From Clostridia bacterium (lineage in GTDB: Bacteria; Bacillota; Clostridia; UMGS1883), in assembly GCA_017472685.1 (NCBI GenBank), contig JAFUOO010000004.1, forward strand, positions 158,903 through 222,902: a DNA stretch of 64,000 nt, in the 5' to 3' direction. The position numbers and the translations under genes are program-made. The stretch's first letter is position 1; every line of letters starts with the position of its first letter. This document shows, one piece after another, positions 4,183-31,768 of the stretch. Below the pieces are notes generated by a model that was given only the letters and a program-made list of their open reading frames with translations, had not been told where the DNA came from and ran no database searches.

Positions 4183-4190
4183 ATTTTATG

Positions 4191-13582: not shown

Positions 13583-13827
13583 TGAATAGAAGAAGGGTTT
13601 GCTGTTCACCTTTTTCACAAAGAGTTTTGAATGAATAGCCTTACCCTCCCAAAAAAATATGTTTTTTGTTTATGTATAATATATTTATCGAAGCGCTGTT
13701 AATAATGAGTAGCGTAAATATTGATAGGAGAGGTGAGATAAAAATGATAACATGCATTTTTCGAATAAGAGCATCCCCTTTTAATAATGCCTTTACTAAT
13801 TAAAAAAATATTAATGAGGTGAAACTT

Positions 13828-16779
13828 ATGAAAAAAATATTGTCGATTTTTTTAAGTGCTGTAATTATTTTTGCGCTGATACCAATTGAAAATGCAATGG
13901 CGTATGCTACAGGAGATGATTATCCGAGCGAGTATAAAAATGTTGAAAATAATTCCATTGTTGACCGATGGAACTTTTATAACCGTCAGTGCACCTCCTT
14001 TGTGGCCTGGTGCTTAAATAGCAGAAATGGAGTTAATTTTACAAATCAATACGGCGGTATTGCTCGTTGGGGAAACGCCAAAGAGTGGTATCAGGCTGCT
14101 CAAAATTTGGGTATTGCAGTCGATAATAATCCTGCGGTGGGTTCGGTTGCAGTATGGACAAGCGGTAAATATGGTCATGTTGCATGGGTCAAAAGCGTGA
14201 CAGGAGATCTTGTAACAATTGAAGAGTATAATTGGAGCGTTAAGGGTGGATACGGACAAAGAACAATATCAAAGTCTGAGGTCAATGGGTTTATACATAT
14301 AAAGGACATAATATCAAATACAGATGTTCCTGACCCTGATCCAATTGTCCCACCGTCAGATATTGTTGTCGAGTCAAATATTGTAGGTCACCTTGATAAG
14401 ATAAGCGTGACATTTAACAAAGTTTATGTTGAAGGATGGGCGACCTGTAGAAATCATCCTTCAAGTTCAATGCCAATACATATTCATATAGACGAACATA
14501 TCGAAGGCTTTCCAACCTCGGGTCACCGTCCGGATGCCGATGCGCATGTGGAAGCTTTGTGGGGAATACCTTCAGCTGATGGACTGCATGGGTTTGCAAA
14601 TACCGTATCAACAGGTAACCAGTTTGGAAAAAATGCAACGATATCTGTTTGGGGTGTTTGCGATGGGTGCTCAAGCGCATGCCTTTGGGTTGGACAGGTA
14701 TACCTCCCGAGAGGTTATACAGTAGCATATAATGCTAATGGAGGAAGCGGCGCTCCCGCTACAGAAACAAAAACTGAAAATGTTGACCTTATATTGTCAA
14801 CAACCATCCCGAAAAGAGCAAACTATTCCTTTATTGGATGGTCAGATTCTCCCGCTAGTACTGCAGCAAAATATATGGCAGGAGAAAAATATGCATCAAA
14901 TTCTGCGATAACTCTTTATGCCGTCTGGAAGAAAAACACTTATACTGTTACATACGATGCGAATGGCGGAGAATCAGTTTCAACAGAATACATAAGTGTT
15001 AGCCATGGAAACTCAGCAAATTTGAGTCAGACCGCCTACAGGGCAGGATACCAATTCTGTGGATGGAATACCAATCCAAATGCGACAAACGCATTAAGTG
15101 AACTTACAATCTCTCAAAATACAGTTGTCTACGCAATCTGGGAGTTAATCGAAGTGAATGTTGAGAAGGTTGAACTTAACAAACCATCAATTGAATTAAA
15201 GGTTGGAATGAGTGAAGAACTGGTTGCAACAATCATTCCTTCGAATGAGACCGGTAAAACCATTATTTGGACAAGCTCAAACGAGGCCGTAGCAACCGTG
15301 GAAAACGGCATTGTCACTGCACGAAGCGCAGGAGATACGCTCATAACAGCAATGGTAGATGGAATAAGTGCAGAATGCACAGTTACCGTTACAGAGCCTG
15401 TAGCAGAGAGTGAAAAAATACAATTGAGAGTCGGCAGTGCAGCGGGTATAAAAGGACAAACTGTGACCATTCCTATTACAATCAACGAAAATTTCGGCAT
15501 AGCAGGCTTTAAGGTTAATATCCAATACGACGCTGGTGTGCTTAATCCCATTTCAATAGAAAAAGGTGAGGCTATCTCTCAACATGGCACGTTGATTACA
15601 AACATAAACCAGCCGCAAGAGAATGTGCAGACCCCTATGCATGTAACAGCATTATGGACTAATCCTTCTGATATAACAGAAAACGGCAATCTACTCCTGG
15701 TTACGTTTAAAATACTCGAAAATGCAGAAGAGGGGACATATCCTGTTTCCGTAACCTATAAACAAGGAGATGTTACAAATCAAGTTTATGAGGATGTTGA
15801 GTTTAATGTGGTTAATGGCGTAGTGTCTGTAATAAACGTGCTTAAAGGCGACGTCTATGTAGATAACCTACTGTCGACAAAGGATCTTTTAAAACTTGGA
15901 CAATACCTTGCAAATTGGCCTATTGACTTCACAGCGTATGAAAAAGACGCTGCAGACATACACGTTGATGGCCTCATTAATACTAAAGATAGCATAAAAC
16001 TTTCGCAAAGCTTGCTTGACGAAACAGAAATGATACAACTTATGGAGTCGAATGACGCAGGCAGTATTACGCTTGAAGCCGGCAATAGCGAAATTGTTAA
16101 TGATTTTGTAGACATCCCTGTCACAATGGTCGAAAATGTTGGTGTCGCAGGTATGAAAATTAAGCTCAGCTATGACAATACAATCCTGACCCCGGTGTCA
16201 ATTACAAGAGGCGAAGCTCTTATGGGCAACGGAGTAATGATATGCAATCTTGACCAGGAGTGTGATTTCTCTACACTCGAAGAGGTGACAATATTTTGGG
16301 CAAACTCGACGAACATCATGAACACTGGGGTAGCGTGTACCGTAAGATTTAAAGTAAGAGATGACATAGAAGATGATATCGTTATAAAACTCAGTTGTGA
16401 GGAAGGCGATATCTGCGATCAGTACTGTAGTGATTTGGAGGTTACACTTAGAAACGGCAAGGTGATTACACAGAATATCAAACAGGATTACACTGTAAAA
16501 TCGATTAGCGGTGAATTTGCAAATGGTAGTATTTATGTGGAAGCAGAGCTGGTTAAGAACACTGACCGAAAGAATAAAGATACGTTTATAATTGCTCTTT
16601 ACGAAGATGACGTTATGGTTGATATGGCTTATATAAAGGCCGAATTCGAAGAAGACTGTAGTTTTTCCTTCGGTGGTATTTTAAAAGGTGCAGAAAACGC
16701 AACGTTAAAAGCTTTTGTATTGGATAGTTTGTCAGGTATGCAATCACTCAGCAATGTTATTGAAAAAACAGTAAAATAG
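13828..16779 (+). CDS. Cell-surface multidomain protein: signal peptide, CHAP amidase/peptidase, Listeria-Bacteroides repeats, Big_2, cohesin, dockerin-like, cohesin.
   Basis: CHAP Cys/His (NRQCTSFVAWC ... GHVAWV). Flg_new-type repeats (YTVAYNANGG..., YTVTYDANGG...). Big_2 (IIWTSSNEAVATV). Two cohesin-like modules. A dockerin-like pair of Ca-binding segments (DVYVDNLLSTKDLLKL, DIHVDGLINTKDSIKL). GAGGTG RBS precedes the ATG at 13828. Confidence 0.65.
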   Translation: MKKILSIFLSAVIIFALIPIENAMAYATGDDYPSEYKNVENNSIVDRWNFYNRQCTSFVAWCLNSRNGVNFTNQYGGIARWGNAKEWYQAAQNLGIAVDNNPAVGSVAVWTSGKYGHVAWVKSVTGDLVTIEEYNWSVKGGYGQRTISKSEVNGFIHIKDIISNTDVPDPDPIVPPSDIVVESNIVGHLDKISVTFNKVYVEGWATCRNHPSSSMPIHIHIDEHIEGFPTSGHRPDADAHVEALWGIPSADGLHGFANTVSTGNQFGKNATISVWGVCDGCSSACLWVGQVYLPRGYTVAYNANGGSGAPATETKTENVDLILSTTIPKRANYSFIGWSDSPASTAAKYMAGEKYASNSAITLYAVWKKNTYTVTYDANGGESVSTEYISVSHGNSANLSQTAYRAGYQFCGWNTNPNATNALSELTISQNTVVYAIWELIEVNVEKVELNKPSIELKVGMSEELVATIIPSNETGKTIIWTSSNEAVATVENGIVTARSAGDTLITAMVDGISAECTVTVTEPVAESEKIQLRVGSAAGIKGQTVTIPITINENFGIAGFKVNIQYDAGVLNPISIEKGEAISQHGTLITNINQPQENVQTPMHVTALWTNPSDITENGNLLLVTFKILENAEEGTYPVSVTYKQGDVTNQVYEDVEFNVVNGVVSVINVLKGDVYVDNLLSTKDLLKLGQYLANWPIDFTAYEKDAADIHVDGLINTKDSIKLSQSLLDETEMIQLMESNDAGSITLEAGNSEIVNDFVDIPVTMVENVGVAGMKIKLSYDNTILTPVSITRGEALMGNGVMICNLDQECDFSTLEEVTIFWANSTNIMNTGVACTVRFKVRDDIEDDIVIKLSCEEGDICDQYCSDLEVTLRNGKVITQNIKQDYTVKSISGEFANGSIYVEAELVKNTDRKNKDTFIIALYEDDVMVDMAYIKAEFEEDCSFSFGGILKGAENATLKAFVLDSLSGMQSLSNVIEKTVK

Positions 16780-17697: not shown

Positions 17698-17735
17698 GAC
17701 TGAGCCTTGACTTAATGTCAAGGCTCAGTTTGTGT
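17698..17735. terminator. Bidirectional terminator between convergent genes.
   Basis: Hairpin gactgagccttgac-ttaat-gtcaaggctcagt. Confidence 0.55.
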
Positions 17736-19970
17736 GTAGATATTTGCTTTTCTTAATAATTCTTGCGGGGTGTACAAAGGAAAGATACCCGTTTCATCTT
17801 CCAAAGAGACTGCAACAATATTTTGAGCCGTGTTGGCATCAAGGTAGCCCTCGACTTTGTATTTGAGAGAAAGTGTTTCAGTGTTAATGAAATATGCAGT
17901 GCTGTCAAGCTTTAGCATTAAAAGATTTTCAGAAGGGAAATATTCATAGCTGACGGAATCGAAGGTTGTGTTTAATTCCAAACTGTCAATGATTGAATAA
18001 TCTGATAAATCTATTTTATGAAGCTTGGCATCGGATGAAAAAACAGTAAGCGTATTTTTATTGTCAACAAACAATAATTTCTGTATTGGAATACTGGAAT
18101 TAAAGTGTTTTACAGGTCTGGTTGTATAAATGTCGTAAATCATCAATTTCGGCATACGGAATGAATCGTTTTGAAGTGAGTTGTAGAAGAGTATACCTGC
18201 ATAGTTGTCTGAAATCCAAATTAAATCAGTATTTTCCTCTTTTTGTTTGGGTAGGGTTAGTGCCATTTGTGATTCATTGGGGTCATAAAACACATATGTA
18301 GTTTCATTTTCCTTGCTATGTTGCATAATTTCTGCAATGATTTTACCGGTAGAAGAAACTTTAAATTTGGTGATATAGGAATCGGGGTTATTCGTGAAAA
18401 ATTCGGGAACCCATTCAATAAATGCGTTGTTGCGGGAATAAATCAATGCGCCCGACTCGGATACGAAGTAAATGTTTTCATTGAAAACAGATGGAATAGA
18501 ATTTGCCTTGCCTTGGTATGAAAAAAGCTCCTTCTTGCCAGGCAAGTCATAGACTGACGTTGCAGTGCTTGACTGCAGGCAAATTTTATTGTCGCTGACA
18601 AAGCAAGCATGGGAAGCATTAGGCAACTCTTTAAAAAATTGGGTGTTTTCCGTAAATGTGTTGTATAGATATGCTTTATCAGAATTGGTGAAAAGAGCGT
18701 ATTCTCCCGATGGACTGAAGGTGAAGTTTGAAATAGGGGAGAATTCAAAGGATAGCGGGATAAAATCCTCGTTGGGAGAGGCGATTGTGTAGACGAAAAC
18801 ATCGACAGACGGAGGTGTTGATACAACATACGTGTTATTGTATTGAGAAGAGAGGGATGTTGTGTCTGCATAGGATGGTGCAGCAAGATAGTCATCTGTA
18901 TCTGCTGAATTGGCGATGATTTCTCCCGTGAAAGCATCTATTGTTTTAATTTCGTGATTTTCTATAAGCAAAAAAATGTGAGCATCTTCAGGGGAAGCAG
19001 CTCCAAATGAAAGTTTGGTATCTTTTGAAGCGGAGAGCTTTGCTACTAAATAACCATCTTTGCGCCAAAGATAAAACGCGTTTTCATCCCTTGTTAAAAT
19101 AGTTTGGCCCATGCAGGTGTGGGTAACGTAGGAAACCGGGTGTTCGTGAGAAAGGGTTGAAATGTGCTTTTTGAATGACGGACTGAAAGCGCCGATTTCC
19201 TCTGAAAGAAGGTGAAGAGCGTTGTCAGGAATTTTATCAGAATCCTTAATTGAGGAAATTTCATCAGTAAGCATTGTGACAGCAGATAAAATGTCGCCCG
19301 AATTATATTTTTTCAATGAGTCTTCAACAACGTTGAGAGTATTTTCTGTTTGAAGATTGTTATCCAGTGAAAAAATATTACCCAATAAACATGCTAAAAC
19401 AATGAAAAGAAACAATGCGGAGATGATTACGGAAAGTGCTCGTTGTTTTCTTCGACGCTTTACGCGGTCATTTAGTTTATTAAATTCGCAATCTAAAAGG
19501 GAAGCTGCTATTCTTAAACATTCATTCTTTATAACTCTCTTTTTTACGGGGAAGGAACACTTTGAAAAATCACAAGCTATCCAATTATTATCATACAATT
19601 CTTTAGGCAGAACTTCTTTTGCATCGCCGCTTATAATACAAGGGACTATGCCTTTGTAGCTGTTATCGAAGTTTCTTTTTTTGTAAAAGTTAATTTCATT
19701 AGAACAGAACTTGGATTTAGGGTAGTTGTCCGAATAGAGAGCAATTAAAAATTCGGATTTTAATATTTTATGATAGATTTCGGTGTTAACTGGTTTTGCT
19801 GCGTTAAAATCGGTTTTATCAAGACAAATCTTCCATTTTTTGAAGTTTTTGGGACGAAGCTTTTTGGGAGGAGTAAAGGTTTCCAAAAAACGTTGAATTT
19901 GTTGAGCTACGCCTTTGTCGTCATCGTGCTTATAGCTGATAAAAGCTTTGTATTCGTAATTTGTGTTCAT
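17718..19970 (-). CDS. TIR-domain protein with one TM helix and a large extracytoplasmic beta-rich (propeller-like) C-terminal region.
   Basis: N-terminal TIR (KAFISYKHDDD ... LIALYS.NY..S.FC..E). TM segment LSVIISALFLFIVLACLLG. About 550 aa of beta-strand-rich repeats. GAGGTG RBS. Confidence 0.6.
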   Translation of the reverse strand: MNTNYEYKAFISYKHDDDKGVAQQIQRFLETFTPPKKLRPKNFKKWKICLDKTDFNAAKPVNTEIYHKILKSEFLIALYSDNYPKSKFCSNEINFYKKRNFDNSYKGIVPCIISGDAKEVLPKELYDNNWIACDFSKCSFPVKKRVIKNECLRIAASLLDCEFNKLNDRVKRRRKQRALSVIISALFLFIVLACLLGNIFSLDNNLQTENTLNVVEDSLKKYNSGDILSAVTMLTDEISSIKDSDKIPDNALHLLSEEIGAFSPSFKKHISTLSHEHPVSYVTHTCMGQTILTRDENAFYLWRKDGYLVAKLSASKDTKLSFGAASPEDAHIFLLIENHEIKTIDAFTGEIIANSADTDDYLAAPSYADTTSLSSQYNNTYVVSTPPSVDVFVYTIASPNEDFIPLSFEFSPISNFTFSPSGEYALFTNSDKAYLYNTFTENTQFFKELPNASHACFVSDNKICLQSSTATSVYDLPGKKELFSYQGKANSIPSVFNENIYFVSESGALIYSRNNAFIEWVPEFFTNNPDSYITKFKVSSTGKIIAEIMQHSKENETTYVFYDPNESQMALTLPKQKEENTDLIWISDNYAGILFYNSLQNDSFRMPKLMIYDIYTTRPVKHFNSSIPIQKLLFVDNKNTLTVFSSDAKLHKIDLSDYSIIDSLELNTTFDSVSYEYFPSENLLMLKLDSTAYFINTETLSLKYKVEGYLDANTAQNIVAVSLEDETGIFPLYTPQELLRKANIYTQTEP

Positions 19971-20194: not shown

Positions 20195-20767
20195 GTGAAG
20201 ACAATGGACAAGATTTGGAGCGAAGAGAGAATCCGTAATGTTATGAAGGAATTAGACAAAAAAACCGGGCTGAAGGGCGCAATGTTGCCGATAATATTTA
20301 CAAAAAGTCGAGGAACCATAGGTTACTTTTCTGTTGTAGGAGGAAAAAGTAACCGATTTGCATTTTCAGATTACTACTATCAAGATCCCGATTGGCCCGA
20401 AGAGATGGCAATTGAAATGATTAAGCATGAATATGCGCATTACATGGACTACGAAACTTACGGAAAAGCGGGACACGGTCCTACTTGGAAGATTTGTTGC
20501 GGTAAACTTGGGATTGCTCCGCTCAGGTTGTATAGCGAAAACGGAGCAAATTACTACATAAATAAGCATAAGTTGAATGAAGCAAAGAGCGAAAAGCTCG
20601 ACCGATATGATAGCGGCGTTTGTATAGAGCATCCTAAATATGGCAAAGGGGTGATAAAAGAAATAGTTGGAGCCGGAGCGAAAAGATTGGCTAAGGTTGA
20701 ATTTGCGGAAGCGGTAGAGAAGTTATTGTCTTTGTCATGGATTGATGAAAAGTGTAAAACTTGCTGA
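20195..20767 (+). CDS. SprT-like zinc metallopeptidase-domain protein.
   Basis: HExxH (MIKHEYAHY) with a downstream G.HG..W motif. Followed by its own terminator. Confidence 0.5.
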   Translation: MKTMDKIWSEERIRNVMKELDKKTGLKGAMLPIIFTKSRGTIGYFSVVGGKSNRFAFSDYYYQDPDWPEEMAIEMIKHEYAHYMDYETYGKAGHGPTWKICCGKLGIAPLRLYSENGANYYINKHKLNEAKSEKLDRYDSGVCIEHPKYGKGVIKEIVGAGAKRLAKVEFAEAVEKLLSLSWIDEKCKTC

Positions 20768-20785
20768 ATTCAAAAGATGTACTAC

Positions 20786-20816
20786 GAAAACACGAAGCGA
20801 TGCGCTTCGTGTTTTC
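20786..20816 (+). terminator. Rho-independent terminator.
   Basis: Hairpin gaaaacacgaagcg-atg-cgcttcgtgttttc. Confidence 0.55.
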
Positions 20817-20899
20817 ATAGTATAAATTATTATTGAAATAAGTGTCGAATTGTGGCACAATATATGTATAAATATTTATAGATTGACGGAGGAATGAAA

Positions 20900-23167
20900 A
20901 TGAGTATAAGTTATACTAAGTTTACCGAAGTAGCAGAAAACAGAATGAAAAGTTTAAAAAACAAATTTAGGTTGCCTCAAGAAGTTGCAATAGAAAGGTT
21001 TAAAAATATAGCGAAAGATAAAGGGAAATCTAATTTTTATGGCGACCTTTACGAGTTAATGAAAGGGTGTGGCTACGGTGAGGTTGATTTTAGAGGGAAA
21101 ACATTTAATGAAGTTAATGAGTTGCTAAAAAAATTAAAGACAAAAGCAGAAACCATTACTATGATATTAGACGAATTATATAACATATATTCAAAACATC
21201 AAAGACAAGGAGAATATATGGAGCGAATCGTTAGAAAATTAGGAGATGAATCGTTCGAAAAAGAAAGCATTAGGGTTGCGATTTTAAAGCAATTTGTTAA
21301 ATATTTGCAGGAAGACATGAAATCCATTCACGATGGTGTATCAAGTGTAATAAGGTACATAAAGCGTGATGATAAAAAATGTAAAACCATTGAAGATGTC
21401 ATAAAGAAAATAGATGAAAGTATTTTTGACAACATAAGCAATAACCATACTGATAAATCATCGGAAGAAAAAGGTTTATCGAATGAGGGGAAAGTTTTTT
21501 TAAAAACAATTGATGATTTGTCAAAGTGTGTTTTCAGAGGTCAAGGTGCTACGCGTGAAGCTATGTATACATTTGCTTTTGCATATGGCTTAACGTATTA
21601 TGAAGATTCTCAAGAAATTGATTATAATAAGTATAGAGATATAGATAAGGTTTTCGTAGATACTTTTAATGATAATTTGTTTAGATATATTGGAGAACAT
21701 CGAAACAGAGAGAATAATGCAATACCTACAGGCGAAATGGTAAATTTTAAAAATTTTGCAGAAGTTATATGCATATACTATTTATCAAAAAAAGATGAAG
21801 AAATCAGTCGTTATCAAAGATACGTCGGAGCTATGGATTGTATTGAAAAATGCAAACAGAACTCTATCGGCATAAAAAGTGAAGGTCGTACAACGGAAAT
21901 ATTTAGACTTAATTATTTTGAAAATGTTGCAAAAATAAATAATGATGACGATCTGGTTGATTATATTATACATAACTACTATGTGCCGGAAAAAATTAAG
22001 CACAGTGGGTTTAAAACGGTAGCGATAGATACAAAATTAATAGAAACTGTAACAGGAGAAGCGGTGAATGAAACTGCGAGAGTGGCTATTGTGAACAAAT
22101 TTATTGAAAATAAATTTGTTGGAGACGGATCTGTTACCGGAGTGACAACCTTTTTGAAAAAGGCAAAGGGCTTGGGAATTAGTGATATAACTGATGAGAG
22201 CCTTAATGAATATTGGGAATCAAAAATGATTAATCCAAAAAAAGATAGAAAGCTAATTGGAATCGCAAATCACTTAATTGAAGGATTATTTGACAATGAA
22301 AGTATAGCTCGTGAAAGCTTATTCAAGTTTGCATTTGTTTTTGATATGAAGCTCTATGAAGACGAAACAGAAACAGGTTACGATAAAAATAGAGACATTG
22401 AGAAGCTGCTACTCATTCCTTTTTTAGGAGAGGGCATAAATTATGAAAAGAAATTAGATACTGTTTGTGCTTACTACCTGCGCAAAGATGGAATTGAACC
22501 CGAGGGGAAGACGAAAACTGTAATTGGGGAAAAAATGAAAAGAGTGAAAGCAGCTCTTGAAATGAAAGGAAATGGAGAAGGAAAAATTGTTAGCGGGGAC
22601 AAAAAAAACTATTTCTGGAATTGTGCTGTGAATATGGAAGAAGAAGCTTTTCAAAAATATGTTGCAGAAAATTTTGAAGATGAAAAAGAAAGTAATAACT
22701 TTAACGATTTCTACACGGAGTCCAATCAAATTACTGCATTTAACATATATAAGTCAATTGTTAGCGAAATACAAAAAATGACAAGTGAAGATGAAATGGA
22801 TATCACCTTAGAAATGCAGGACGATGTAGAAATTATCATAGATGAATTTAATAAGACAAAATATTCAAAAGATGACAATTTCATGAAACTATTGCTTGCG
22901 TTGATAAAAATGGTGACTCCTGACAAAAACGTTAATTATAAAAACATGACCAGAAGTAAACTGATTTCATTAGAGTATTATAAAATGAAACGTGATCTTG
23001 ACAATACAGCAAATTTTGAGCAAACGTATGATGAAATTTTAGATTATATCAACATGGACTTGATAGATGCGAGGTATAATCCTCTCGATACAAGAAGTAT
23101 GTATGATTTGTTCGTTGTTTTTCTTGTTTACATACAAGTTGTGTTAATGAACGCCCCCAAAAATTAA
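20900..23167 (+). CDS. Large hypothetical protein of about 755 aa, Lys/Glu-rich, no recognisable domain. First gene of the kinase cassette.
   Basis: Long uninterrupted ORF with a GGAGG RBS. Co-directional and tightly spaced with the downstream genes. Confidence 0.5.
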   Translation: MSISYTKFTEVAENRMKSLKNKFRLPQEVAIERFKNIAKDKGKSNFYGDLYELMKGCGYGEVDFRGKTFNEVNELLKKLKTKAETITMILDELYNIYSKHQRQGEYMERIVRKLGDESFEKESIRVAILKQFVKYLQEDMKSIHDGVSSVIRYIKRDDKKCKTIEDVIKKIDESIFDNISNNHTDKSSEEKGLSNEGKVFLKTIDDLSKCVFRGQGATREAMYTFAFAYGLTYYEDSQEIDYNKYRDIDKVFVDTFNDNLFRYIGEHRNRENNAIPTGEMVNFKNFAEVICIYYLSKKDEEISRYQRYVGAMDCIEKCKQNSIGIKSEGRTTEIFRLNYFENVAKINNDDDLVDYIIHNYYVPEKIKHSGFKTVAIDTKLIETVTGEAVNETARVAIVNKFIENKFVGDGSVTGVTTFLKKAKGLGISDITDESLNEYWESKMINPKKDRKLIGIANHLIEGLFDNESIARESLFKFAFVFDMKLYEDETETGYDKNRDIEKLLLIPFLGEGINYEKKLDTVCAYYLRKDGIEPEGKTKTVIGEKMKRVKAALEMKGNGEGKIVSGDKKNYFWNCAVNMEEEAFQKYVAENFEDEKESNNFNDFYTESNQITAFNIYKSIVSEIQKMTSEDEMDITLEMQDDVEIIIDEFNKTKYSKDDNFMKLLLALIKMVTPDKNVNYKNMTRSKLISLEYYKMKRDLDNTANFEQTYDEILDYINMDLIDARYNPLDTRSMYDLFVVFLVYIQVVLMNAPKN

Positions 23168-23214: not shown

Positions 23215-23868
23215 TTGATGCGAATAAAAAAATTTACTAAGGTCGGAAATTACAATAGTTTGAGAGGGGTAGAAAATCAGGATTATATTTGCGTAAAGGA
23301 AAACAAAAGATTTCTTGTCGTGGCACTGGCAGACGGTGCAACAAGCTGTGTTAAAGGTGCAGCTGGCGCAAGAATAGCATGTGAAGCAGCTTCTGGGATG
23401 TTAATAAAAAGCGATAAGTGGTTTGATTTTGAGAAGGAAAAAGTGGCATACTTAATTCTTGAAGAGGTTTTGTTTCAAACAAAAAAAGAAGCGGATAAGA
23501 ATAATGAGCCATTAGAAGCTTATGCAAGCACGCTGGTAATAACTCTTTTTGATAAAAAGAAAAACAGATTACTTGTTTTTAATTTAGGTGATGGTGCAGT
23601 ATTTCTATCATTTCAAAACGACATAAAATATAATCCGGTTGTTTCACCGAAAAGATTCGAAGGGCAACCGTCGCTGATTACTTGCCTGGATTCTTATAAA
23701 GATGCGCAAGTAGTTGTATTAAATGAATTCGACGGGAAAATATTTATGTGCAGTGATGGTGTATATGAAATTCTCTTCAAAAAAGGTATTACTATAGCTG
23801 AGTTTATAAAAGAACCTGAGAAATGGGATCTTGAAGATGACGGCAGTTTTTTATTTTACGAAACATAG
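23215..23868 (+). CDS. PP2C-like (PPM-fold) phosphatase-domain protein, degenerate.
   Basis: PPM-like motifs: ALADGATS..GAAGARIA, STLVITLFD, NLGDGAVF, CSDGVYE. Lies 18 nt upstream of the kinase gene. Confidence 0.5.
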   Translation: MMRIKKFTKVGNYNSLRGVENQDYICVKENKRFLVVALADGATSCVKGAAGARIACEAASGMLIKSDKWFDFEKEKVAYLILEEVLFQTKKEADKNNEPLEAYASTLVITLFDKKKNRLLVFNLGDGAVFLSFQNDIKYNPVVSPKRFEGQPSLITCLDSYKDAQVVVLNEFDGKIFMCSDGVYEILFKKGITIAEFIKEPEKWDLEDDGSFLFYET

Positions 23869-23885
23869 ATAATGAGGTGTTATAT

Positions 23886-26800
23886 ATGAGACAGGTTTTG
23901 TCAACCAATTGCATTATAAATTTAAGGCATGTGTTGTCCGGAGGAACGGAAAAGTTTAAAATAAAATCCGTGGTAGGAAAAGGTGGCGCCTGTATTTGCT
24001 ATAGGGTAATTCGTGGAAACAGAGAAGGATTGTTAAAAGAGTTTTACCCTGAGGATGTGGGAATAACTCAAAATTATAACATGTTGGAGAGAGACAAAAA
24101 ACACCAGTTAATAGCAGTTGAAGAAGCGTTTGCAGAACGCTTTTCGATTATGAGACAAGAATTTATTGACGGCTATAACTTGTTGGAAAAAGCAAAAAAG
24201 GGTAAGAGAGCGAAGGCTCTGGCAAATTATATTCCCAAGTATGAGATATTTGAAGGGCTGCCTGAAAATTCAACTGTGTATATATGGATGGAAGAGACCG
24301 TGGGAGTGAATTTTGAACAATACTTACAGTGGGTATGGAAAAATGCTGAGGTAAATAGCGCTCTAAAGGTTCATAATATTTTATGCACCATAAACACTAT
24401 CGCTACAGGTGTGTGCGGAATGCACATAAACGGATTGAATCATAGAGACATAAAGCCAGAAAATTTTCTGGTTGAAAAAGATGCAGTGGAAGAACTTAAT
24501 CCTTACCATGTGTGTATGTTTGATATTAACAGTTTCACTTATGGTTCATCGGCAAAATACATTGTGGGCACAAAAGGTTATATGGCACCTGAAGTTGCTT
24601 TTGGTAAGGCCCGTTACTATAGTGACATATATTCTCTAGGTGCGATGTTATTCCATGCTGTAATTGGTGAAAACGCGCTTTATAACGATGAGCAATATGA
24701 TGTAATTGAGCGTTTGGTTTCAGAATCAAAACTAATATCTAAAATTAAAGATGTATATTTAGAAACATACATCACGGAAATTTTGAAAAAGAGTTTAAAA
24801 AAAGAACACACAAAACGATACAAGCAGACAGAAGATTTTATAAGAGATATAAAAAAGGCCATTGCCCGTCTTTTGCCATACACTGAATCGGGAAAGCTTG
24901 GTCCGGGTAAGAGATTGAAAATTGTGGAACAAAACAGACCGATTGACAGTATTCCTGTGTTTCAGGATTTGCTTTATAAAAAGCCTGTATATGAGTATTA
25001 CGATAACAATAATAATGAAATTAACGTTGCTGTTGTCGGTGGCGGCGTTTATGCACAGGCTTTTATGGATGTTGTATTGCAAACTTTACAAATTAAGGGA
25101 AAAACGCTTAATGTTTATGTGTATTCAAAAGATGCCAATTTTGATAAAGGCATTTATTTGAAAGCACGACCTGATATAGGCAGATTTTTTGATATTGATG
25201 ATAAGAATGTGAGCGATGACTCGTATGGAAGAATACGCTTTATAGAAAAAACTTTTAGCGAAAAACACACTGAGTTCCCGGAAATTATTAAAGCAGAGCC
25301 GAGCTATGTTTTTGTTTCTTTGGGCGGCGACAAAGTGAATAAAGCTGTGGCGAAAGCACTTGCAAACAAATTTTCGGAAGAAAACAAAAACGCTTTAATT
25401 AATTTTGTTTGGACAGGGGAGGAAATTAGAGTAAAAAACAATAAATTAAATCCCGTTTATGTCAGTCAAAGAGTAAAATATTCTGATATAGATGCAAACC
25501 TTGCCAACATGGCATTTAATACCCATCTTGTTTGGAACGATTCTTTCTCGAAAGATTATGGTGAGTTATACAAAGAGTTCAGAGAGTCTTATAACTATAA
25601 GTCATCCATCGCATATGCATTATCAATTCCATACAAATTACACTCAATGGGTTTAACAGATGAAAAAGGAAATTATGATATTGAGTGCATTAATTCCATG
25701 TTAAGTGATGAAAAAGTATTGAGAGAACTTTCGTGCTACGAACATAGACGTTGGGTCACCGAAATGATTTGCAAAGGATGGACAGCGCCGGTTGATGCTA
25801 ATGGCAGAGTTGAAACGAAATTGTGCCTTGAATTTTTATCAAATAAAAATAAAAAAGATAAAATACATCTCTGTATTGCAAAAGGAAGTACAAGCAGTTG
25901 TCCTGACGAGAAGGAATGGGATGAATTTAAAGGTAAATTGGATGATTTGGATCGCGTGAGCATAGAGCTTTATGGACATTATAATAAAGAGGCTAAGAAG
26001 TTCAAAGCAAAATATTTAAGCGGAGAATTTACTGCGTTGAAAACATTGAAGCAGAGTTTATCAGGCGTTTCGGAATTTTCAAAATTGTTGGCAGAATATG
26101 AGTTTTCGATAGACGCCATTGTGAAAAATTGCAGTAAAATGCACGCGTTGAAATTTGAATCATTACATTCAAGAATTGTTGAAAAAATAGAAAAATCTTC
26201 GAAAATAGTAAAACCTGATGCTGTTTTAAAAGAACTTAATTCTGTATTAGAAAGCATTAACCCTTCAGTGTACAGTATAAAAAGGACTAATTATAAACGA
26301 ATTGATGATGACCTTGTGAAACGTATTCCGTTTATAATTACAAATCGCCCAAGACCGCAAATAACTATGGTATTTAATGATGGGCGATATGGAAACTATG
26401 CGAATGAAGAAGTTTTAAAAAATGTAGCATCTGCTGTTGCCATAGTGCCAAAGCACATTACGTATTTATATTATTGCAACAACTTAACAAACATTAAAAA
26501 GCTCGCTTCTGCAATTAAAGGGGTTTTGAATTTCTTTGATAAAAAAAGCATGGCAAACACAATTGATTTTGTCTTTGCATGTAATAGCAGTTTTAATGCA
26601 GAACTGAAGAGTAAAATGGAAGTTTTGAAAAAAGAGTATGCAAGAATCAAAAACATTTACTACCACGAGTACATAAGCGAAAAAGCTGCTGTTTTACTTT
26701 TTGCAAATAAGTATTGCAATGATATTATAGAGGGGACAAGTTTGCCCTTTGATACAGCGGTTAGTAACGGGTATTTCACAGAACAGATGCGCCAAAAGCA

Positions 26801-27956
26801 TTATTTTGAATTTAATTCATATAACAAGAGCTTTGGGTATATAGCAGGTTGTGAATATTTGAAGTATATAGATGTATCTAAAGTTGGCATCAATGTTGAA
26901 GATTTATTTGTTTTAAAGCAGGTTGACTATCAAGCAGCAGTTTCGGATATGTTTACATTTTACGAGCCTTTGTGGAAAACATATACAACTAACGGCGTTG
27001 GAAAAGATGATAAGCTTTGGTCATATTCTGTTAGCAACTGGAATGCATTGTCAGAAAAGCTTAAAAAGTGTGCAGAAATAAACGATGCTGTAATGACATT
27101 TGAGGCAAAAAATGAGGAGAAAACAAAAATAACTCTTACAAAAATATTGCCTATGGAATGCAGTGAAACGGTTCGCAACATTGTAAATGACATGAAAAAA
27201 CACGGATTTATACATAATGGTAAGATAATAGCGTGTAATTCCGATAGTGTTAAGCTCTCTGTTTCTTTTGACAAAGTGTATGAAGAAAAAATAAATAAGT
27301 TGTTTTCAAAATATAGCGAACTTAAAAATAAGTTGTTTGTAGAATCTTTTTATGAATATAATACAAAGAAGCTGAAAATCACTAAAAGAAATTTATTCGT
27401 CGAAAATTTGCAGTTATCAAGGTATGAATACAGGTGTCTGGAATGTTTGTCAAATGAAAAACTAATTAATGATTTAATAGTCATTAACCAAGACGAAAAA
27501 AATACGACTGTGAGTTTTGCATATCCGTCATACAGTATAAAAAACATTCTGGAAAAGGCGGGTAATATCCTTGAACTACATATATATTATCAGTTGTTGA
27601 AACATGGTGATTTTGATGATGTTGAAACAAATGTTGTGGCACAGGGAGACGGGTTCAAAAATGAATTTGATGTTATAATTACAAAAGGATTTAAAACAAT
27701 TTTGATAGAATGTAAAGCAGTAAAGTCGTTAGAGCAGGATTTCTATTTTAAATTAAGCAGCCTTGCAAAGCATTATGGGGTTAATAATATACCCGTGATT
27801 ATATCTACAGAACATGGTGAAGCAAAAGTTTTTGATGTAGTTAATCAAGAAAATGAGGCTCGAGGCGAGGTAATGGGAGTTGTTACGATTTCAACGCGCG
27901 AAGATGTGATCAATATAAATGATGCTATCGTAAAAATTTTTAAGGAAGGTGTTTAA
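23886..27956 (+). CDS. Giant multidomain protein: N-terminal Hanks-type Ser/Thr protein kinase, central Rossmann-like and RyR-like segments, C-terminal PD-(D/E)xK nuclease-like domain.
   Basis: Kinase Gly-loop VGKGGACICY, catalytic loop HRDIKPENF, activation loop GTKGYMAPE. GxGxxA motif VAVVGGGVYAQA. RyR-like segment YEHRRWVTEMICKGW. C-terminal E...FDVIIT...ECK restriction-endonuclease-like motif. GAGGTG RBS precedes the ATG at 23886. Confidence 0.7.
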   Translation: MRQVLSTNCIINLRHVLSGGTEKFKIKSVVGKGGACICYRVIRGNREGLLKEFYPEDVGITQNYNMLERDKKHQLIAVEEAFAERFSIMRQEFIDGYNLLEKAKKGKRAKALANYIPKYEIFEGLPENSTVYIWMEETVGVNFEQYLQWVWKNAEVNSALKVHNILCTINTIATGVCGMHINGLNHRDIKPENFLVEKDAVEELNPYHVCMFDINSFTYGSSAKYIVGTKGYMAPEVAFGKARYYSDIYSLGAMLFHAVIGENALYNDEQYDVIERLVSESKLISKIKDVYLETYITEILKKSLKKEHTKRYKQTEDFIRDIKKAIARLLPYTESGKLGPGKRLKIVEQNRPIDSIPVFQDLLYKKPVYEYYDNNNNEINVAVVGGGVYAQAFMDVVLQTLQIKGKTLNVYVYSKDANFDKGIYLKARPDIGRFFDIDDKNVSDDSYGRIRFIEKTFSEKHTEFPEIIKAEPSYVFVSLGGDKVNKAVAKALANKFSEENKNALINFVWTGEEIRVKNNKLNPVYVSQRVKYSDIDANLANMAFNTHLVWNDSFSKDYGELYKEFRESYNYKSSIAYALSIPYKLHSMGLTDEKGNYDIECINSMLSDEKVLRELSCYEHRRWVTEMICKGWTAPVDANGRVETKLCLEFLSNKNKKDKIHLCIAKGSTSSCPDEKEWDEFKGKLDDLDRVSIELYGHYNKEAKKFKAKYLSGEFTALKTLKQSLSGVSEFSKLLAEYEFSIDAIVKNCSKMHALKFESLHSRIVEKIEKSSKIVKPDAVLKELNSVLESINPSVYSIKRTNYKRIDDDLVKRIPFIITNRPRPQITMVFNDGRYGNYANEEVLKNVASAVAIVPKHITYLYYCNNLTNIKKLASAIKGVLNFFDKKSMANTIDFVFACNSSFNAELKSKMEVLKKEYARIKNIYYHEYISEKAAVLLFANKYCNDIIEGTSLPFDTAVSNGYFTEQMRQKHYFEFNSYNKSFGYIAGCEYLKYIDVSKVGINVEDLFVLKQVDYQAAVSDMFTFYEPLWKTYTTNGVGKDDKLWSYSVSNWNALSEKLKKCAEINDAVMTFEAKNEEKTKITLTKILPMECSETVRNIVNDMKKHGFIHNGKIIACNSDSVKLSVSFDKVYEEKINKLFSKYSELKNKLFVESFYEYNTKKLKITKRNLFVENLQLSRYEYRCLECLSNEKLINDLIVINQDEKNTTVSFAYPSYSIKNILEKAGNILELHIYYQLLKHGDFDDVETNVVAQGDGFKNEFDVIITKGFKTILIECKAVKSLEQDFYFKLSSLAKHYGVNNIPVIISTEHGEAKVFDVVNQENEARGEVMGVVTISTREDVININDAIVKIFKEGV

Positions 27957-27958
27957 AT

Positions 27959-28240
27959 ATGTACGAACCAAAACCAATTGATACAAGTGATATTATTTTA
28001 TCTGATGAATTATTGGCGTTAACTGAGAAACTTGCTGAAAACACACATGACGTGTGGGCTGTGGGCAGAATAAGCCAGGGATGGAAATATGGGGAAAAGC
28101 GTGATGATTTAAAGAAGGAAACTCCGTGTTTGGTGCCCTATGTAGAACTTCCGGAAAGTGAAAAAGAGTATGACAGAAATACAGCACTGGAGACGCTGAA
28201 GTTAATAGTTAAGTTGGGGTATAGTATAGAAAAAATATAA
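27959..28240 (+). CDS. RyR (ryanodine-receptor-type) domain protein.
   Basis: LAENTHDVWAVGRISQGWKYGEKRDD..K..PCLVPYVELPESEKEYDR matches the bacterial RyR-domain consensus. The start is 2 nt after the kinase stop. Confidence 0.6.
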   Translation: MYEPKPIDTSDIILSDELLALTEKLAENTHDVWAVGRISQGWKYGEKRDDLKKETPCLVPYVELPESEKEYDRNTALETLKLIVKLGYSIEKI

Positions 28241-28396
28241 TATATAGGTGCTATTTGAGGGGTCTTCTTGCGGCAGAAAACTGTTTGATAAGGAAACCCC
28301 TCAAATTAAAAATCATATTATTGCGAATATTGGGAGATGGCTTATTTATATGTTGAGCAACATATAAATAGCAAAGTTTAAATGTGGGGAATGTGT

Positions 28397-30079
28397 ATGG
28401 AAAGCCGTGTAAAAATAAAAACAAGGAATAATTCAGAACATAAAGATAAGAACAGGGTATATTTTGCTTGCCATCCAGATGATTTCGAAATAAGCTTTGA
28501 TAAAATTACTGATAAAATTCTTGAAAAGCAAAATTGCGCAATATACTATGGTATAACTGATAAAGCTATGAAAGAAGATGAATCTATAGCTGTTTTATTA
28601 CAGATGCAACTGATTGTTATACCGATAACTGAAAAATTTTTGCGCGAAGATAATGGTGCCTATAATATTGTGTTTAAGATAGCGATTGAAAACCATATTC
28701 CCGTTTTGCCGATTATGCAGGAAGAGGATATAGGGGACTTATTTAATGAGAAATGTGGAAAACTCCACTACCTCAAAGAAACAACCGAAACTACGGAGAT
28801 AAGTTATGATGAAAAAATAGAGAGTTTTTTGAATTCTGTATTAGTCAACGACGAGATAGTAGAAAAGATACGTGATGCATTTGCAGCATATATTTTTTTA
28901 AGCTATAGAAAAAAAGACAGAAAATATGCACAAGAATTAATGAGACTTATACATAAGAATGATTTCTGTCGTGATATTGCGATTTGGTATGATGAGTTTT
29001 TGACGCCCGGTGAGAATTTCAACGATTCTATAAAAGAAGCTATTAAAAAAAGCGGATTGTTTGTACTTGCGGTAACACCGAATTTGATAAATGAAACAAA
29101 CTATGTAATGACAACGGAATACCCTATGGCAAAGAGAGAAGGAAAGCTTATACTTCCTACAGAACTTGTTCCGACAGACAGGAAGGCACTCGCTAAAAAG
29201 TATAGTGATATTCCAACACCTATAGATATAAATAATGATATCGAATTTTCAGATGCTCTTCTTGATTCTGTTAAGAAAATAGAAATTAAGAAAAATGTTA
29301 TCACGCCGGAACACAACTTCTTCATTGGACTTGCGTACCTGGATGGAATTGATATGGAAATTGATCATGCACGTGCTCTTGCACTTATAACCAGTGCTGC
29401 AGAAGAGCAACTTGTGGAGGCAATGAAAAAATTGATATCAATGTATAAAAGAGGAAAAGGTGTTTGCGTAGATTATATCATAGCACTAAACTGGCAATAT
29501 CGTTTGGTAAATATACTGCTTCAAAAATTTAACGCTGAAAAAACGGTAGCTGCTTTTTCGGAATATTTCCATGAATTGTTTAATTATGTCGGAGATTTGT
29601 ACAACGAACGAGGAGATGGACCATATGAGTTAGGTGCATCCAAAGTGCTTGAAGATTGCATCTTATATATTGATGGGCTTCAAAGGGAGAGACATAAAGA
29701 ACTTCAAGAAAAATTCAACAAGGATGATGTATTAAGAGAATGCTTGCGTGATGATGAAATGATGAATGTGTTAATAGAAACAAGACAAAAACTGCGTTTT
29801 GTGGCAGAAAGATTCTTGCCAAAAACATGTGATCTTTACAGGGAATTGATTTATGACAAAAATCAGGACAAAACGCCTTCCCAAGCTGTTATCAGGTGTT
29901 GGCTATCATATTTTTCTGAGTACGCAGGAGATATTGAGGTTGCCATGCAATATAGAAAAGAAGCAGAAAACATTATAGGGGATTACGCATCAAAGGATAC
30001 TGGAGATGTCAATGAGCTATGTAAAAAATGTGGTATAGGTATATGTAGTATGAAAAAAATCATTGACAGCTTTCGTTAG
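28397..30079 (+). CDS. TIR-domain protein with an N-terminal domain of unknown function and a C-terminal Sel1/TPR-like helical region.
   Basis: Internal TIR (AYIFLSYRKKDRKYAQEL ... WYDE ... LFVLAVTPN...S.YV..E). N-terminal VYFACHPDD region of unknown function. Terminator follows. Confidence 0.55.
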   Translation: MESRVKIKTRNNSEHKDKNRVYFACHPDDFEISFDKITDKILEKQNCAIYYGITDKAMKEDESIAVLLQMQLIVIPITEKFLREDNGAYNIVFKIAIENHIPVLPIMQEEDIGDLFNEKCGKLHYLKETTETTEISYDEKIESFLNSVLVNDEIVEKIRDAFAAYIFLSYRKKDRKYAQELMRLIHKNDFCRDIAIWYDEFLTPGENFNDSIKEAIKKSGLFVLAVTPNLINETNYVMTTEYPMAKREGKLILPTELVPTDRKALAKKYSDIPTPIDINNDIEFSDALLDSVKKIEIKKNVITPEHNFFIGLAYLDGIDMEIDHARALALITSAAEEQLVEAMKKLISMYKRGKGVCVDYIIALNWQYRLVNILLQKFNAEKTVAAFSEYFHELFNYVGDLYNERGDGPYELGASKVLEDCILYIDGLQRERHKELQEKFNKDDVLRECLRDDEMMNVLIETRQKLRFVAERFLPKTCDLYRELIYDKNQDKTPSQAVIRCWLSYFSEYAGDIEVAMQYRKEAENIIGDYASKDTGDVNELCKKCGIGICSMKKIIDSFR

Positions 30080-30589: not shown

Positions 30590-30763
30590 AAATATACCTC
30601 TCCAAAAACACATAAATAAAATTCGTAGTAGAATCAACATAACATAAAGAGAGGACGTGATGCTAATGAGGACGATGTTTAAAAGCAGGGGTAGTTTTAA
30701 GAGTTTAAATTCACAAAGTTGTGTGTAAGAAAAAGCATGTGTAAAACAGAAAGGAAAATAATT

Positions 30764-31768
30764 ATGAAAAAATTAGTAGCAACTATCATGACAATGGTAA
30801 TGGTGGCATCAATGATTCTTAGCGTTAATGTTTCTGCGGCAACAAGTTATCCTTCGCTGTCGAAGACTAATTATTGTGAATTTGTGGCAAATAAAGACAT
30901 AAAGGTATACAATTCCAGACTCTGTGACACAAGAGGAACGATCGTTCCTGCCAAGAATTACAATGCATTGGTGGAAAAGGGTGACATATGTTACATTCAT
31001 TCGTTCGGAAAGACCAGTATTGTATTGGAATATCCTGTAGGTAATGGGACAAGAATCGGATACATAAAGACCAGGGATCTGTTGGGCGCTAATATAACCC
31101 CTGAAAGTTCATTTAAAGCAACAAGCAAGGTAACTACTTATAAGTATAAAAATGGTTCTAAAACCGGCTACTATGAATCAGGAGACACAGTATATGTGCT
31201 TAATGGTGCTAGCTATAACATAATTTATTCAGCTCCATCCAAAAATAGAGGGTACAAATTAGCCTACGTTGATACCGCAACAAAGAAGAATTCTACCGAA
31301 GAAACATTGACAAATGCATTATATAAAATTAATATTTCTGGGTCAAAAATAACGTGCGGCTTTGATGGATATGTTAACACATCGGGGCGTCATGAGGGAA
31401 TAGATTTCGCTTATGGCATAGGCAAAAATGTATATTCTTTAACAGATGGAACTGTAACTAATGTGGTTAAGGGATATAATGGTTCCGGTGGATTGTCTAC
31501 AATCGCAATTTATGACTCTGAAAATGATAAGACTGTAATATATCTGCATGCAGCTCCGTCAAACCTTCAGATTGGTCAAAAGATTGAGCAAGGGGACAAG
31601 ATAGCAACGGAGGCATGGAGGGGATGTTCTTCCGATAAAGGTGCGCATACACATGTGGAAGTTAGAAATGGTAGAAAGACTCATGCTGCAAAGAGCGTAG
31701 GGGACTATACGCTTGATAATAAAAATCCTAAAACCTATTGGAACAGTTTAGGGTATAGCGTTAAGTAA
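30764..31768 (+). CDS. Secreted SH3-like plus M23-like peptidase. Inverted paralog of 7778-8746.
   Basis: Signal peptide. Shares long blocks with the first copy (ASYPSLSKxNYCEF, EKGDICYI, YPVGN, GYIxTxDLLGxNIxPxSSF, KVTTYKY, RGYKLA). M23-like C-terminus (HEGIDF ... HTHVEV). Confidence 0.7.
   Translation: MKKLVATIMTMVMVASMILSVNVSAATSYPSLSKTNYCEFVANKDIKVYNSRLCDTRGTIVPAKNYNALVEKGDICYIHSFGKTSIVLEYPVGNGTRIGYIKTRDLLGANITPESSFKATSKVTTYKYKNGSKTGYYESGDTVYVLNGASYNIIYSAPSKNRGYKLAYVDTATKKNSTEETLTNALYKINISGSKITCGFDGYVNTSGRHEGIDFAYGIGKNVYSLTDGTVTNVVKGYNGSGGLSTIAIYDSENDKTVIYLHAAPSNLQIGQKIEQGDKIATEAWRGCSSDKGAHTHVEVRNGRKTHAAKSVGDYTLDNKNPKTYWNSLGYSVK

Follow-up and report, generated by a model that had tools for sequence, protein, structure and literature searches.

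Can2, Card1, Cdn1 and VC1899 (DUF1887) join a CARF domain to a PD-(D/E)xK nuclease and are activated by cyclic tetra-adenylate (cA4) in type III CRISPR systems, whose signalling is reset by ring nucleases (Crn1-3, Csx15/16/20) that degrade cyclic oligoadenylates. Thoeris systems pair a TIR-domain protein, ThsB, with an effector that senses its signal through a SLOG, Macro or other domain. A phage protein built on the ryanodine receptor (RyR) domain, RyDEP, binds the Thoeris TIR messengers 2'cADPR as well as 3'cADPR, forms of cyclic ADP-ribose (cADPR), and cleaves their ribose-ribose bond, while other phage RyDEP homologues serve as nanomolar sponges (PMC13232231, May 2026 preprint). Here we describe a large protein and its operon in a 64,000-nucleotide stretch of DNA from a member of the Clostridia (assembly GCA_017472685.1, contig JAFUOO010000004.1, positions 158,903 to 222,902), hereafter the window, and compare the locus with these systems.

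The protein strings together a kinase, an NAD(P)-type Rossmann domain, a tandem RyR-like segment, a helical linker, a CARF-like domain, an insert and a PD-(D/E)xK nuclease, in that order. Its parts all belong to known kinds, and what is new is their combination and the proposed sensor; our literature searches, which took in the RyDEP preprint, returned no account of this architecture, of RyR genes of the host within TIR operons or of a sensor cassette of the Rossmann-RyR type. We tentatively read the big protein and its neighbours as a Thoeris-like anti-phage TIR-signalling effector system whose sensor would be the Rossmann-RyR-like block, and we give this reading slightly less than an even chance.

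Domain architecture and operon

The big gene is a forward-strand open reading frame (ORF) that extends from a GTG at 23877 to 27956 (1,359 amino acids, aa) or, from the ATG at 23886, encodes 1,356 aa; a GAGG ribosome-binding site lies 9-12 nt 5' of this ATG, and residues are numbered from it throughout. An earlier inspection of the bare letters, the sequence-only reading, had reported this ORF, which is real, and quoted two peptides from it that lie at residues 380-393 (NVAVVGGGVYAQAF) and 618-635 (YEHRRWVTEMICKGWTAP). The parts of the protein and the four other genes of its operon are as follows.

20894..23167, + strand: partner A, 757 aa, fast-evolving, first gene of the operon (homologues lie 5' of the big gene elsewhere)
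23215..23868, + strand: PP2C-type Ser/Thr phosphatase, 217 aa (Pfam PP2C_2, E 8e-23)
23943..24890, + strand: Hanks-type Ser/Thr protein kinase, residues ~20-335 of the big protein (Pfam Pkinase, PF00069; PADLOC PD-T4-6)
25011..25475, + strand: NAD(P)-type Rossmann domain, residues ~376-530, with G385-G-G387-V-Y-A390 (AlphaFold2, AF2; Pfam matches of the family)
25476..25685, + strand: RyR-like repeat 1, truncated, residues ~531-600, with A-F-N-T-H547-L-V-W550 (hhalign P 2.2e-4)
25686..25985, + strand: RyR-like repeat 2, residues ~601-700 (hhalign P 8.5e-6; profile matches to PDB sequences)
25986..26345, + strand: helical linker region, residues ~701-820, K804 invariant and D807 near-invariant (AF2 models)
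26346..26885, + strand: CARF-like Rossmann-type domain, residues ~821-1000, degenerate in sequence (Foldseek)
26886..27545, + strand: beta/alpha insert of ~220 aa, residues ~1001-1220 (AF2 secondary structure)
27546..27956, + strand: PD-(D/E)xK nuclease of the Card1/Can2 (DUF1887) type, residues ~1221-1356 (PADLOC, Foldseek)
27959..28240, + strand: small RyR-domain protein, 93 aa (Pfam RyR over its full length, E 2e-37)
28382..30079, + strand: TIR-domain protein, 565 aa, TIR at residues ~161-285 (Pfam TIR_2, E 1e-9)

The four modules proposed from the letters, namely a kinase, a Rossmann-type segment, an internal RyR-like segment and a PD-(D/E)xK nuclease, are all real by Pfam, PADLOC, Foldseek, hhalign and AF2, but the architecture built from them was incomplete, lacking the CARF-like domain (~821-1000), the ~220-aa insert and the pairing of the RyR repeats. 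The stand-alone RyR-domain protein placed just downstream is likewise present, as the 93-aa ORF at 27959-28240, which contains HDVWAVGRISQGWKYG. The five co-directional genes (partner A, PP2C, the big gene, the small RyR gene and the TIR gene) are separated by 47, 17, 2 and 141 nt, the small RyR start codon following the big gene's stop codon by only 2 nt. No convincing terminator lies between them, and the promoter and terminator scans returned no more than shuffled sequence leads one to expect. Just upstream, a strong hairpin with a 20-bp stem at 20780-20822 stands between an SprT-like gene (20195-20767) and partner A and is probably a bidirectional terminator.

A probable divergent RyR domain within the big protein

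Residues ~531-700 appear to form a divergent tandem RyR domain, an assignment we make because profiles built at the level of the family, matches to sequences in the PDB and an intermediate sequence all agree. The profile of repeat 2 (residues 601-720) aligns with that of the small RyR proteins at P 8.5e-6 (hhalign), which lifts the RyR-like segment of the sequence-only reading above noise, and the profile of repeat 1 (531-600) aligns with RyR positions 15-90, the hairpin loop deleted, at P 2.2e-4. Comparison of the two repeats with one another is non-significant (P 0.086, hhalign), so that the word tandem refers to a separate RyR match for each repeat and not to a detected duplication. At the level of single sequences the likeness is marginal, with a BLASTP E-value of 0.008 between the internal segment and the small RyR protein. 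When a profile of 30 internal segments was compared with 177,635 PDB sequences, 13 of its 14 matches were RyR proteins, among them Repeat12 constructs, full RyR channels and the bacterial RyR proteins 3NRT and 6UAG. Sub-threshold matches to PF02026 occur in 15 of the 30 family members (best E 3e-4), with no other Pfam family found in more than two, and the repeat-2 model, run against 4,971 ORFs from the fetched loci, gave RyR-domain ORFs as its best non-self matches. The bridging sequence is a 645-aa protein of locus L094, which matches both Pfam RyR (E 9e-4) and window residues 531-720 (BLASTP E 4e-10) and thus joins the two families. A Foldseek search of the modelled N-terminal half against the PDB and BFVD returned weak, generic Rossmann matches and no RyR structure, probably because the multi-domain query masks a helical domain of ~170 residues.

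Repeat 2 carries the motifs E619-H620-R-R622-W623, G631-W632, K-x-H661-x-C663 and L-D686-D-L-D689-R-x-S692 and is the densest stretch of invariant positions in the big protein. Positions conserved in at least 95% of sequences make up 13% of repeat 2, 8.6% of repeat 1, 5.2% of the Rossmann domain, 0.7% of the nuclease and 0% of the CARF-like domain. E619, R622, W623, D686 and K804 are invariant in the 292 aligned family sequences, and a further set is conserved in 287-290 of them (H620 in 290, H661 in 289, G385 in 288, H547 and W550 in 287 each), alongside C663 and S692. In RyDEP, the residues that contact the cADPR-derived ADP-ribose (ADPR) are H75, W78, H100 and D117, which are conserved in PF02026 and in the animal Repeat12 (R12) domain (PMC13232231). 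H620, W623 and H661 of the internal segment align with the first three of these by both hhalign and HMMER and are kept in 289-292 of the 292 sequences.

The Rossmann domain and the compact core

The AF2 model of residues 340-830 folds the Rossmann, RyR-like and helical regions into one compact unit (predicted local distance difference test, pLDDT, 92.9; predicted template-modelling score, pTM, 0.92). Its Rossmann part is a beta-alpha-beta sandwich in which the glycine motif sits at the first strand-helix turn (beta1-alphaA). G385 is present in 288 of the 292 sequences and G387 in 234, position 390 is Gly in 180 and Ala in 70, and D395, Q402 and R428 are near-invariant. Sequence matches exist at the level of the family and are weak: Sacchrp_dh_NADP is matched by 29 of 49 relatives, always below threshold (best E 2e-4), and PglD_N, NAD_binding_7, GFO_IDH_MocA and TrkA_N by 5-11 of the 49 each, again below threshold. 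The window's own copy has no Pfam match at E <= 1, the Rossmann profile matched homoserine dehydrogenase alone among PDB sequences (E ~0.9), and Foldseek of the N-terminal-half model gave weak matches to the Rossmann domains of NAD(P) dehydrogenases (probability up to 0.99 but E > 0.04). Predicted topology and conserved glycines thus uphold the GxGxxA segment called from the letters, with weak family-level matches beside them and none for the window copy.

The CARF-like domain, the insert and the nuclease

Foldseek aligned the AF2 model of residues 780-1356 (pLDDT 92.8) with full-length VC1899, Can2, Cdn1 and Card1 at E 1e-10 to 8.5e-14 and template-modelling scores of 0.5-0.7 by target length, the target structures being 1xmx, 7bdv, 6xl1 and 9u49. 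Since the match extends over entire Can2/Card1-type structures, residues ~821-1356 (536 residues) represent a whole CARF plus PD-(D/E)xK unit. The nuclease motif is intact (E1230, D1262 and E1275-C-K1277), and the PADLOC model CARF4--CARF_PDDEXK matches residues 1226-1352 at E 2e-12. Pfam Card1_endonuc (PF09002) gives 20.0 bits for the whole protein and 24.8 for the isolated segment, under the cut-off of 26.4 that many homologues pass. The nuclease-like C-terminal fold noticed from the letters therefore holds, with PADLOC at E 2e-12, Foldseek at E 1e-10 to 1e-14 and catalytic residues kept in ~82-89% of homologues. Between the two halves of this unit, the insert gave weak ACT-like and LAGLIDADG-like Foldseek matches (E 1e-3 to 1e-2); an mCpol match there at E 0.086 was treated as noise.

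The CARF-like region itself (821-1000) contains no invariant alignment column and no position conserved to 95% or more, and its profile matched no CARF protein among PDB sequences. It has probably been reduced to a dimerisation scaffold. This bears on a reading we regard as quite improbable, in which the CARF domain is the true sensor, of cyclic oligoadenylate or a similar molecule, and the Rossmann-RyR-like block regulates only the kinase. Such an arrangement would fit the alignment of residues 780-1356 over the full length of Can2, Card1, Cdn1 and VC1899, which bind cA4 or are related to proteins that do; against it stand the lack of strongly conserved positions and of any sequence-level CARF match, the existence of family members without the CARF-nuclease unit, and the finding of no nucleotide cyclase, Cas10, CD-NTase, SMODS, mCpol or GGDEF protein in the annotated neighbourhoods or among 133 other neighbour genes.

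The kinase, the phosphatase and partner A

The kinase matches Pfam Pkinase at 71.2 bits (cut-off 31.7; E 1e-19) over residues 122-313 and has a complete set of motifs: K51, H186-R-D188, K190, N193, D213 in a D-I-N variant of DFG, and A-P-E at 234-236. Its top models in the defence libraries are PD-T4-6 (E 1e-24), MAD6 (E 4e-18) and PglW (E 4e-11), with MkoA also among the best. The sequence-only reading had named absence of catalytic residues in homologues as evidence that would tell against it; the four key residues of the kinase are conserved in kinase-bearing homologues, K51 as Lys in 201 and Arg in 21 of 233, D188 in 221 of 229, N193 in 219 of 228 and D213 in 224 of 238.

Two upstream genes travel with this domain. 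Of 83 loci, 41 have a PP2C homologue immediately 5' of the big gene, exclusively with kinase-bearing forms, and 51 have a homologue of partner A one or two genes 5' of the kinase-bearing form; none has one beside the kinase-less form. The relationship of partner A to the upstream genes of other loci was established by local BLASTP, a word-based homologue search having given just four relatives. As a single sequence it matched nothing in Pfam, PADLOC or NCBIfam, and a 46-sequence profile matched nothing in Pfam or among PDB sequences; its sequence, together with weak matches to designed helical repeats, suggests that it is likely helical. An internal duplication relates its residues ~200-365 to ~450-530, and it has a conserved SGxGINYKNFAE motif.

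Distribution and modular architectures of the family

The non-kinase part of the protein retrieves 90 clusters at 90% identity, and an exhaustive profile search gave 1,398 50%-identity clusters at E <= 1e-3; 355 of these reach E <= 1e-30, which puts the family at no fewer than 355. In a scan of one genome per species (GTDB), relatives turn up in 114 species out of about 185,000. Clostridia of the gut and rumen predominate, with others in Synergistales, Sphaerochaetaceae, Selenomonadaceae, Erysipelotrichaceae and one planctomycete; isolates that carry them include Fusibacter paucivorans DSM 12116, Ruminococcus callidus and Thomasclavelia spiroformis. No relatives were found in phage and plasmid collections (tblastn) or in a scan of IMG/VR. 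The remark from the letters that kinase-nuclease fusions are rare is therefore true in relative terms but not outright, this fusion family alone amounting to hundreds of clusters and 114 GTDB species.

Three architectures recur. The majority form joins the kinase, the core and the CARF-nuclease unit; a kinase-less form of ~870-1,070 aa, which some sources name 'DUF1887 family CARF protein', consists of the core and the CARF-nuclease unit; and a nuclease-less form (L090, P0085-P0090) has the kinase and the core only. One of the last group, P0089 (L002:4888-7680), is a kinase-Rossmann-RyR-like-helical protein with a canonical RyR domain at its C-terminal end. A fourth context comes from locus L094, whose 645-aa membrane protein combines a transmembrane (TM) part with a C-terminal Rossmann-RyR cassette, the same sensor cassette on a membrane-type effector. 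From the three architectures it follows that the Rossmann, RyR-like and helical core is the sole universal part of the family, to which kinase, CARF-nuclease and membrane domain are interchangeable attachments.

The patchy occurrence in 114 of about 185,000 species also weighs against a non-immune role, in which a housekeeping signalling kinase with a repair or recombination nuclease would merely happen to lie in a mobile island. This idea suits the lack of any defence annotation for partner A and the purely genomic nature of the family's tie to phage; the distribution, the location of members in islands and on mobilisable elements, the TIR, STAND and DUF4062 neighbours, the preference of the kinase for antiphage models and the Can2 type of the effector make it very improbable.

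The stand-alone RyR protein

In 35 of the 73 loci with enough downstream sequence (48%), the gene immediately after the big gene (position +1) is the small RyR gene. In the spacing of RyDEP the protein's putative ligand positions are H30, W33, T55 and D72. All 39 copies adjoining a big gene have H30, W33 and D72, while Thr55 occupies the place of RyDEP's phosphate-binding His (H100) in 38 of the 39. The protein is unusually conserved for a defence-island gene, at 75-100% identity across more than 100 clusters (120 close homologues), and its relatives at E <= 1e-5 number over 7,000 clusters.

The suspected functional link between the internal module and the separate RyR protein gains from the +1 position, from the fusion in P0089 and from a 262-aa RyR-TIR fusion directly 3' (+1) of the big gene in another locus (L014:6984-7769). 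One way to explain the link is through a protein interface, with the small RyR protein docking on the internal RyR-like domain and working there, in stoichiometric amounts, as an inhibitor or adaptor, a shared small-molecule ligand being unnecessary. RyDEP forms a homodimer, in the animal R12 two repeats make up a pseudo-dimer (PMC13232231), the 2-nt gap implies translational coupling of the two genes, and P0089 joins a canonical RyR domain to the kinase-Rossmann-RyR-like half. We nonetheless consider docking distinctly unlikely, for the internal domain already has its own pair of repeats, half of the loci have no small RyR gene, the invariant residues are those of ligand contact and not of a surface patch, and the catalytic dyad H30/D72 is kept in every small RyR copy.

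TIR proteins and other neighbours

The TIR protein that ends the window's operon retains both F-[IL]-S-Y and the Glu that is near-invariant across the aligned TIR sequences, and is homologous to 829-aa TIR-Sel1 proteins at position -2 in three other loci. In a Pfam scan of 133 other neighbour genes TIR_2 was the commonest family, with seven genes. Besides the RyR-TIR fusion, one locus has a 374-aa protein that is kinase-like and bears a ThsB-type TIR, 3' of its RyR gene (L046:11691-12812), and the P0016 loci run effector, RyR, GNAT-like gene and TIR. Two of three arbitrarily chosen homologues of the small RyR protein lie on a very prevalent gut mobilisable element with a MobL relaxase (L091:1590-6927; also L092, L093 and L097-L099), where the order is DUF6076, a kinase-less effector of 1,011 aa, RyR and TIR; in P0193, one of these two homologues' loci, the gene after RyR encodes a 208-aa ThsB-type TIR. 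The element's exact RyR protein recurs in 90 blocks of the collection, on contigs of up to 0.8 Mb. The third homologue (L094:472-6282) follows a TIR protein with 30 MORN repeats (1,191 aa) and the 645-aa membrane protein, and is itself 93 aa long.

Other neighbours include a DUF4062-NACHT-TPR protein (L058) and, in two loci of the kinase-less form, DHH-DHHA1 phosphoesterases encoded 3' of the small RyR gene (L077:11269-12849 and L086:11188-12717), which may take part in turnover of a nucleotide messenger. The neighbour-gene scan gave a third DHH match.

The TIR associations have to be weighed against the idea that the Rossmann-RyR-like block is a metabolite guard, sensing the general adenine-nucleotide state (a fall in NAD+ or a rise in ADPR caused by other NADase defences or by phage) and firing nuclease and kinase as a second line. 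The Rossmann part does resemble NAD(P)-binding and TrkA_N/KTN regulatory domains, about 70% of loci have no TIR gene within 5 kb, TIR-STAND proteins, which usually make ADPR, abound in the window's island, and the animal R12 site binds plain adenine nucleotides (PMC13232231). Yet the compact operons pair the effector with a small TIR of the ThsB, signal-making kind, and a built-in RyR binder or hydrolase is best explained by a dedicated messenger; we judge the guard unlikely.

Proposed mechanism

Several strands of evidence lead us to the Thoeris-like reading: the RyR-like block is the most constrained part of the protein and keeps the His and Trp ligand contacts of RyDEP; the cassette is portable, occurring in kinase-less, nuclease-less and TM-Rossmann-RyR forms; and TIR proteins are linked to it through the intact Glu of the window TIR, the mobilisable element, the P0016 loci, the L014 fusion and the rank of TIR_2 among neighbours. 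A role in defence is suggested because antiphage models fit the kinase best, the island encodes at least five TIR proteins, and phage, plasmid and IMG/VR searches gave no relatives.

From the observed architecture, conservation pattern, gene order and variants we infer a ligand, a direction of control and roles for the accessory genes. Upon infection, a TIR protein, either the adjacent one or another in the island, would convert NAD+ into a messenger derived from ADP-ribose. The Rossmann-RyR-like block would bind this messenger in a putative pocket formed by H620, W623, H661 and the acidic pair D686/D689, and binding would activate the Can2-type nuclease, leading to DNA damage or abortive infection, and/or the kinase, with the CARF-like domain probably a leftover dimerisation scaffold. 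PP2C would undo the action of the kinase and hold the system off, and the fast-evolving partner A may be a sensor or a substrate of the kinase. The small RyR protein would bind or hydrolyse the same messenger and so set the threshold or end the response, much as ring nucleases do in type III CRISPR.

Several points weigh against this scheme. The internal RyR assignment comes from sequence profiles, and the segment itself falls far under the Pfam RyR (PF02026) threshold (12.6 against 27.4 bits, E 0.17). The equivalent of RyDEP D117 is ambiguous, being D679 by hhalign and D686 or D689 by motif, of which D689 is present in 280 of 292 sequences. For the Rossmann domain, NAD+/NADH or ATP is a conceivable ligand in place of a dedicated messenger. 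At the output end, D1262 is kept in 247 of 278 homologues, E1275 in 227 of 278 and K1277 in 224 of 269, so that 11-18% of homologues lack at least one catalytic residue of the nuclease, and partner A, to which the scheme assigns a role, matches nothing in the libraries. Neither a TIR gene within 5 kb (21 of 73 loci) nor the small RyR gene (35 of 73) is obligatory, and proximity to TIR genes could partly reflect clustering in defence islands.

The genomic island

The operon lies in a region of low G+C content (32-38%, against a background of ~45%) that extends from ~4.3 to 38 kb of the window and has tRNA-Thr and tRNA-Lys genes (4107-4265) at its left edge; it looks like an integrated island. 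At least five TIR proteins are encoded in it, counting that of the operon. Its other TIR genes and further genes are as follows.

4875-5642: TIR protein with MORN repeats
10205-12622: TIR protein with STAND/TPR, 805 aa
12977-13582: TIR-like protein, 201 aa, recognised only by a locally built profile, no Pfam match
17718-19970, - strand: TIR protein with a beta-propeller, 750 aa
5898-6575 (- strand), 7778-8851 (- strand), 9056-10078 (- strand), 13819-16779 and 30719-31768: a calcineurin-like phosphoesterase, two M23 peptidases, an AAA+ ATPase and a ScrM-like protein

The ScrM-like protein is a peptidoglycan hydrolase with Listeria-Bacteroides repeats. Cell-wall hydrolases such as the M23 and ScrM-like proteins are typical of conjugative elements.

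Significance

It is possible, though on balance we think it doubtful, that messengers of the cyclic-ADP-ribose type, made by TIR proteins, have the RyR (R12) fold as their ancient receptor, that a portable Rossmann-RyR cassette senses them for an unrecognised Thoeris-like family with kinase, Can2-type nuclease or membrane outputs, that the small RyR protein terminates or buffers the signal, and that phage RyDEP and the nucleotide site of animal RyRs descend from this immune sensor. If the Thoeris-like reading of the locus holds, TIR-based bacterial immunity would gain Rossmann-RyR as a sensor domain and, as an effector type, a kinase plus Can2-like nuclease under PP2C, both of them new. RyR-domain proteins, characterised so far only as phage counter-defence (in the 2026 preprint), would be used by the host as well, both within an effector and as a separate regulator. 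The locus would also offer a tractable bacterial system for the long-standing question of whether the ryanodine-receptor R12 domain is a receptor of the cADPR family. The family is common in Clostridia of the human and animal gut, where a mobilisable element of very high prevalence also carries it, and so bears on the dynamics of phages and their hosts in the microbiome.

Comparison with known systems

The kinase is closest to the antiphage Ser/Thr kinases PD-T4-6, Stk2, BREX PglW and MADS MAD6, which furnish its best models, and it keeps all kinase catalytic residues; it differs in scoring far under their equivalog cut-offs, in its fusion to a sensor cassette and a nuclease, and in its pairing with PP2C. 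At the other end of the protein, residues ~821-1356 share with Can2, Card1, Cdn1 and VC1899 the two-domain fold, its order and the D...ExK motif, whereas the window locus has no CRISPR or cyclase context, its CARF-like domain has no strongly conserved residue, and the protein adds the ~220-aa insert and ~820 N-terminal residues (kinase, Rossmann, RyR-like and helical).

With the RyR family PF02026 (RyDEP, the animal RyR Repeat12, 3NRT and 6UAG) the internal segment shares H-x-x-W, G-W and K-x-H-x-C, but it is a divergent copy, with insertions of 16 and ~11 aa and a truncated first repeat, and unlike phage RyDEP it sits in a host effector beside a Rossmann domain. As for the small RyR protein, it belongs fully to PF02026 but, in contrast to RyDEP, is host-encoded within a putative defence operon, and it has Thr where RyDEP and the animal RyRs have the phosphate-binding His. 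By analogy with the ring nucleases it would be a small host protein with the sensor's fold, encoded beside the effector and binding or destroying the messenger; the fold is unrelated, however, the chemistry would be that of a glycosidase instead of a phosphodiesterase, and its role is assigned here by inference.

The text of a survey of 29 types of Thoeris mentions no RyR, CARF or kinase effectors. With Thoeris, whose mode of action is probably its own as well, the locus shares an operon TIR with an intact Glu, compact relatives that pair the effector with a ThsB-type TIR, and a modular sensor cassette set on interchangeable killing domains. It departs from Thoeris in its proposed sensor, Rossmann-RyR in place of SLOG, Macro or others, in a TIR gene that is not always adjacent, and in the additional layer of kinase, PP2C and partner A together with a built-in RyR protein.

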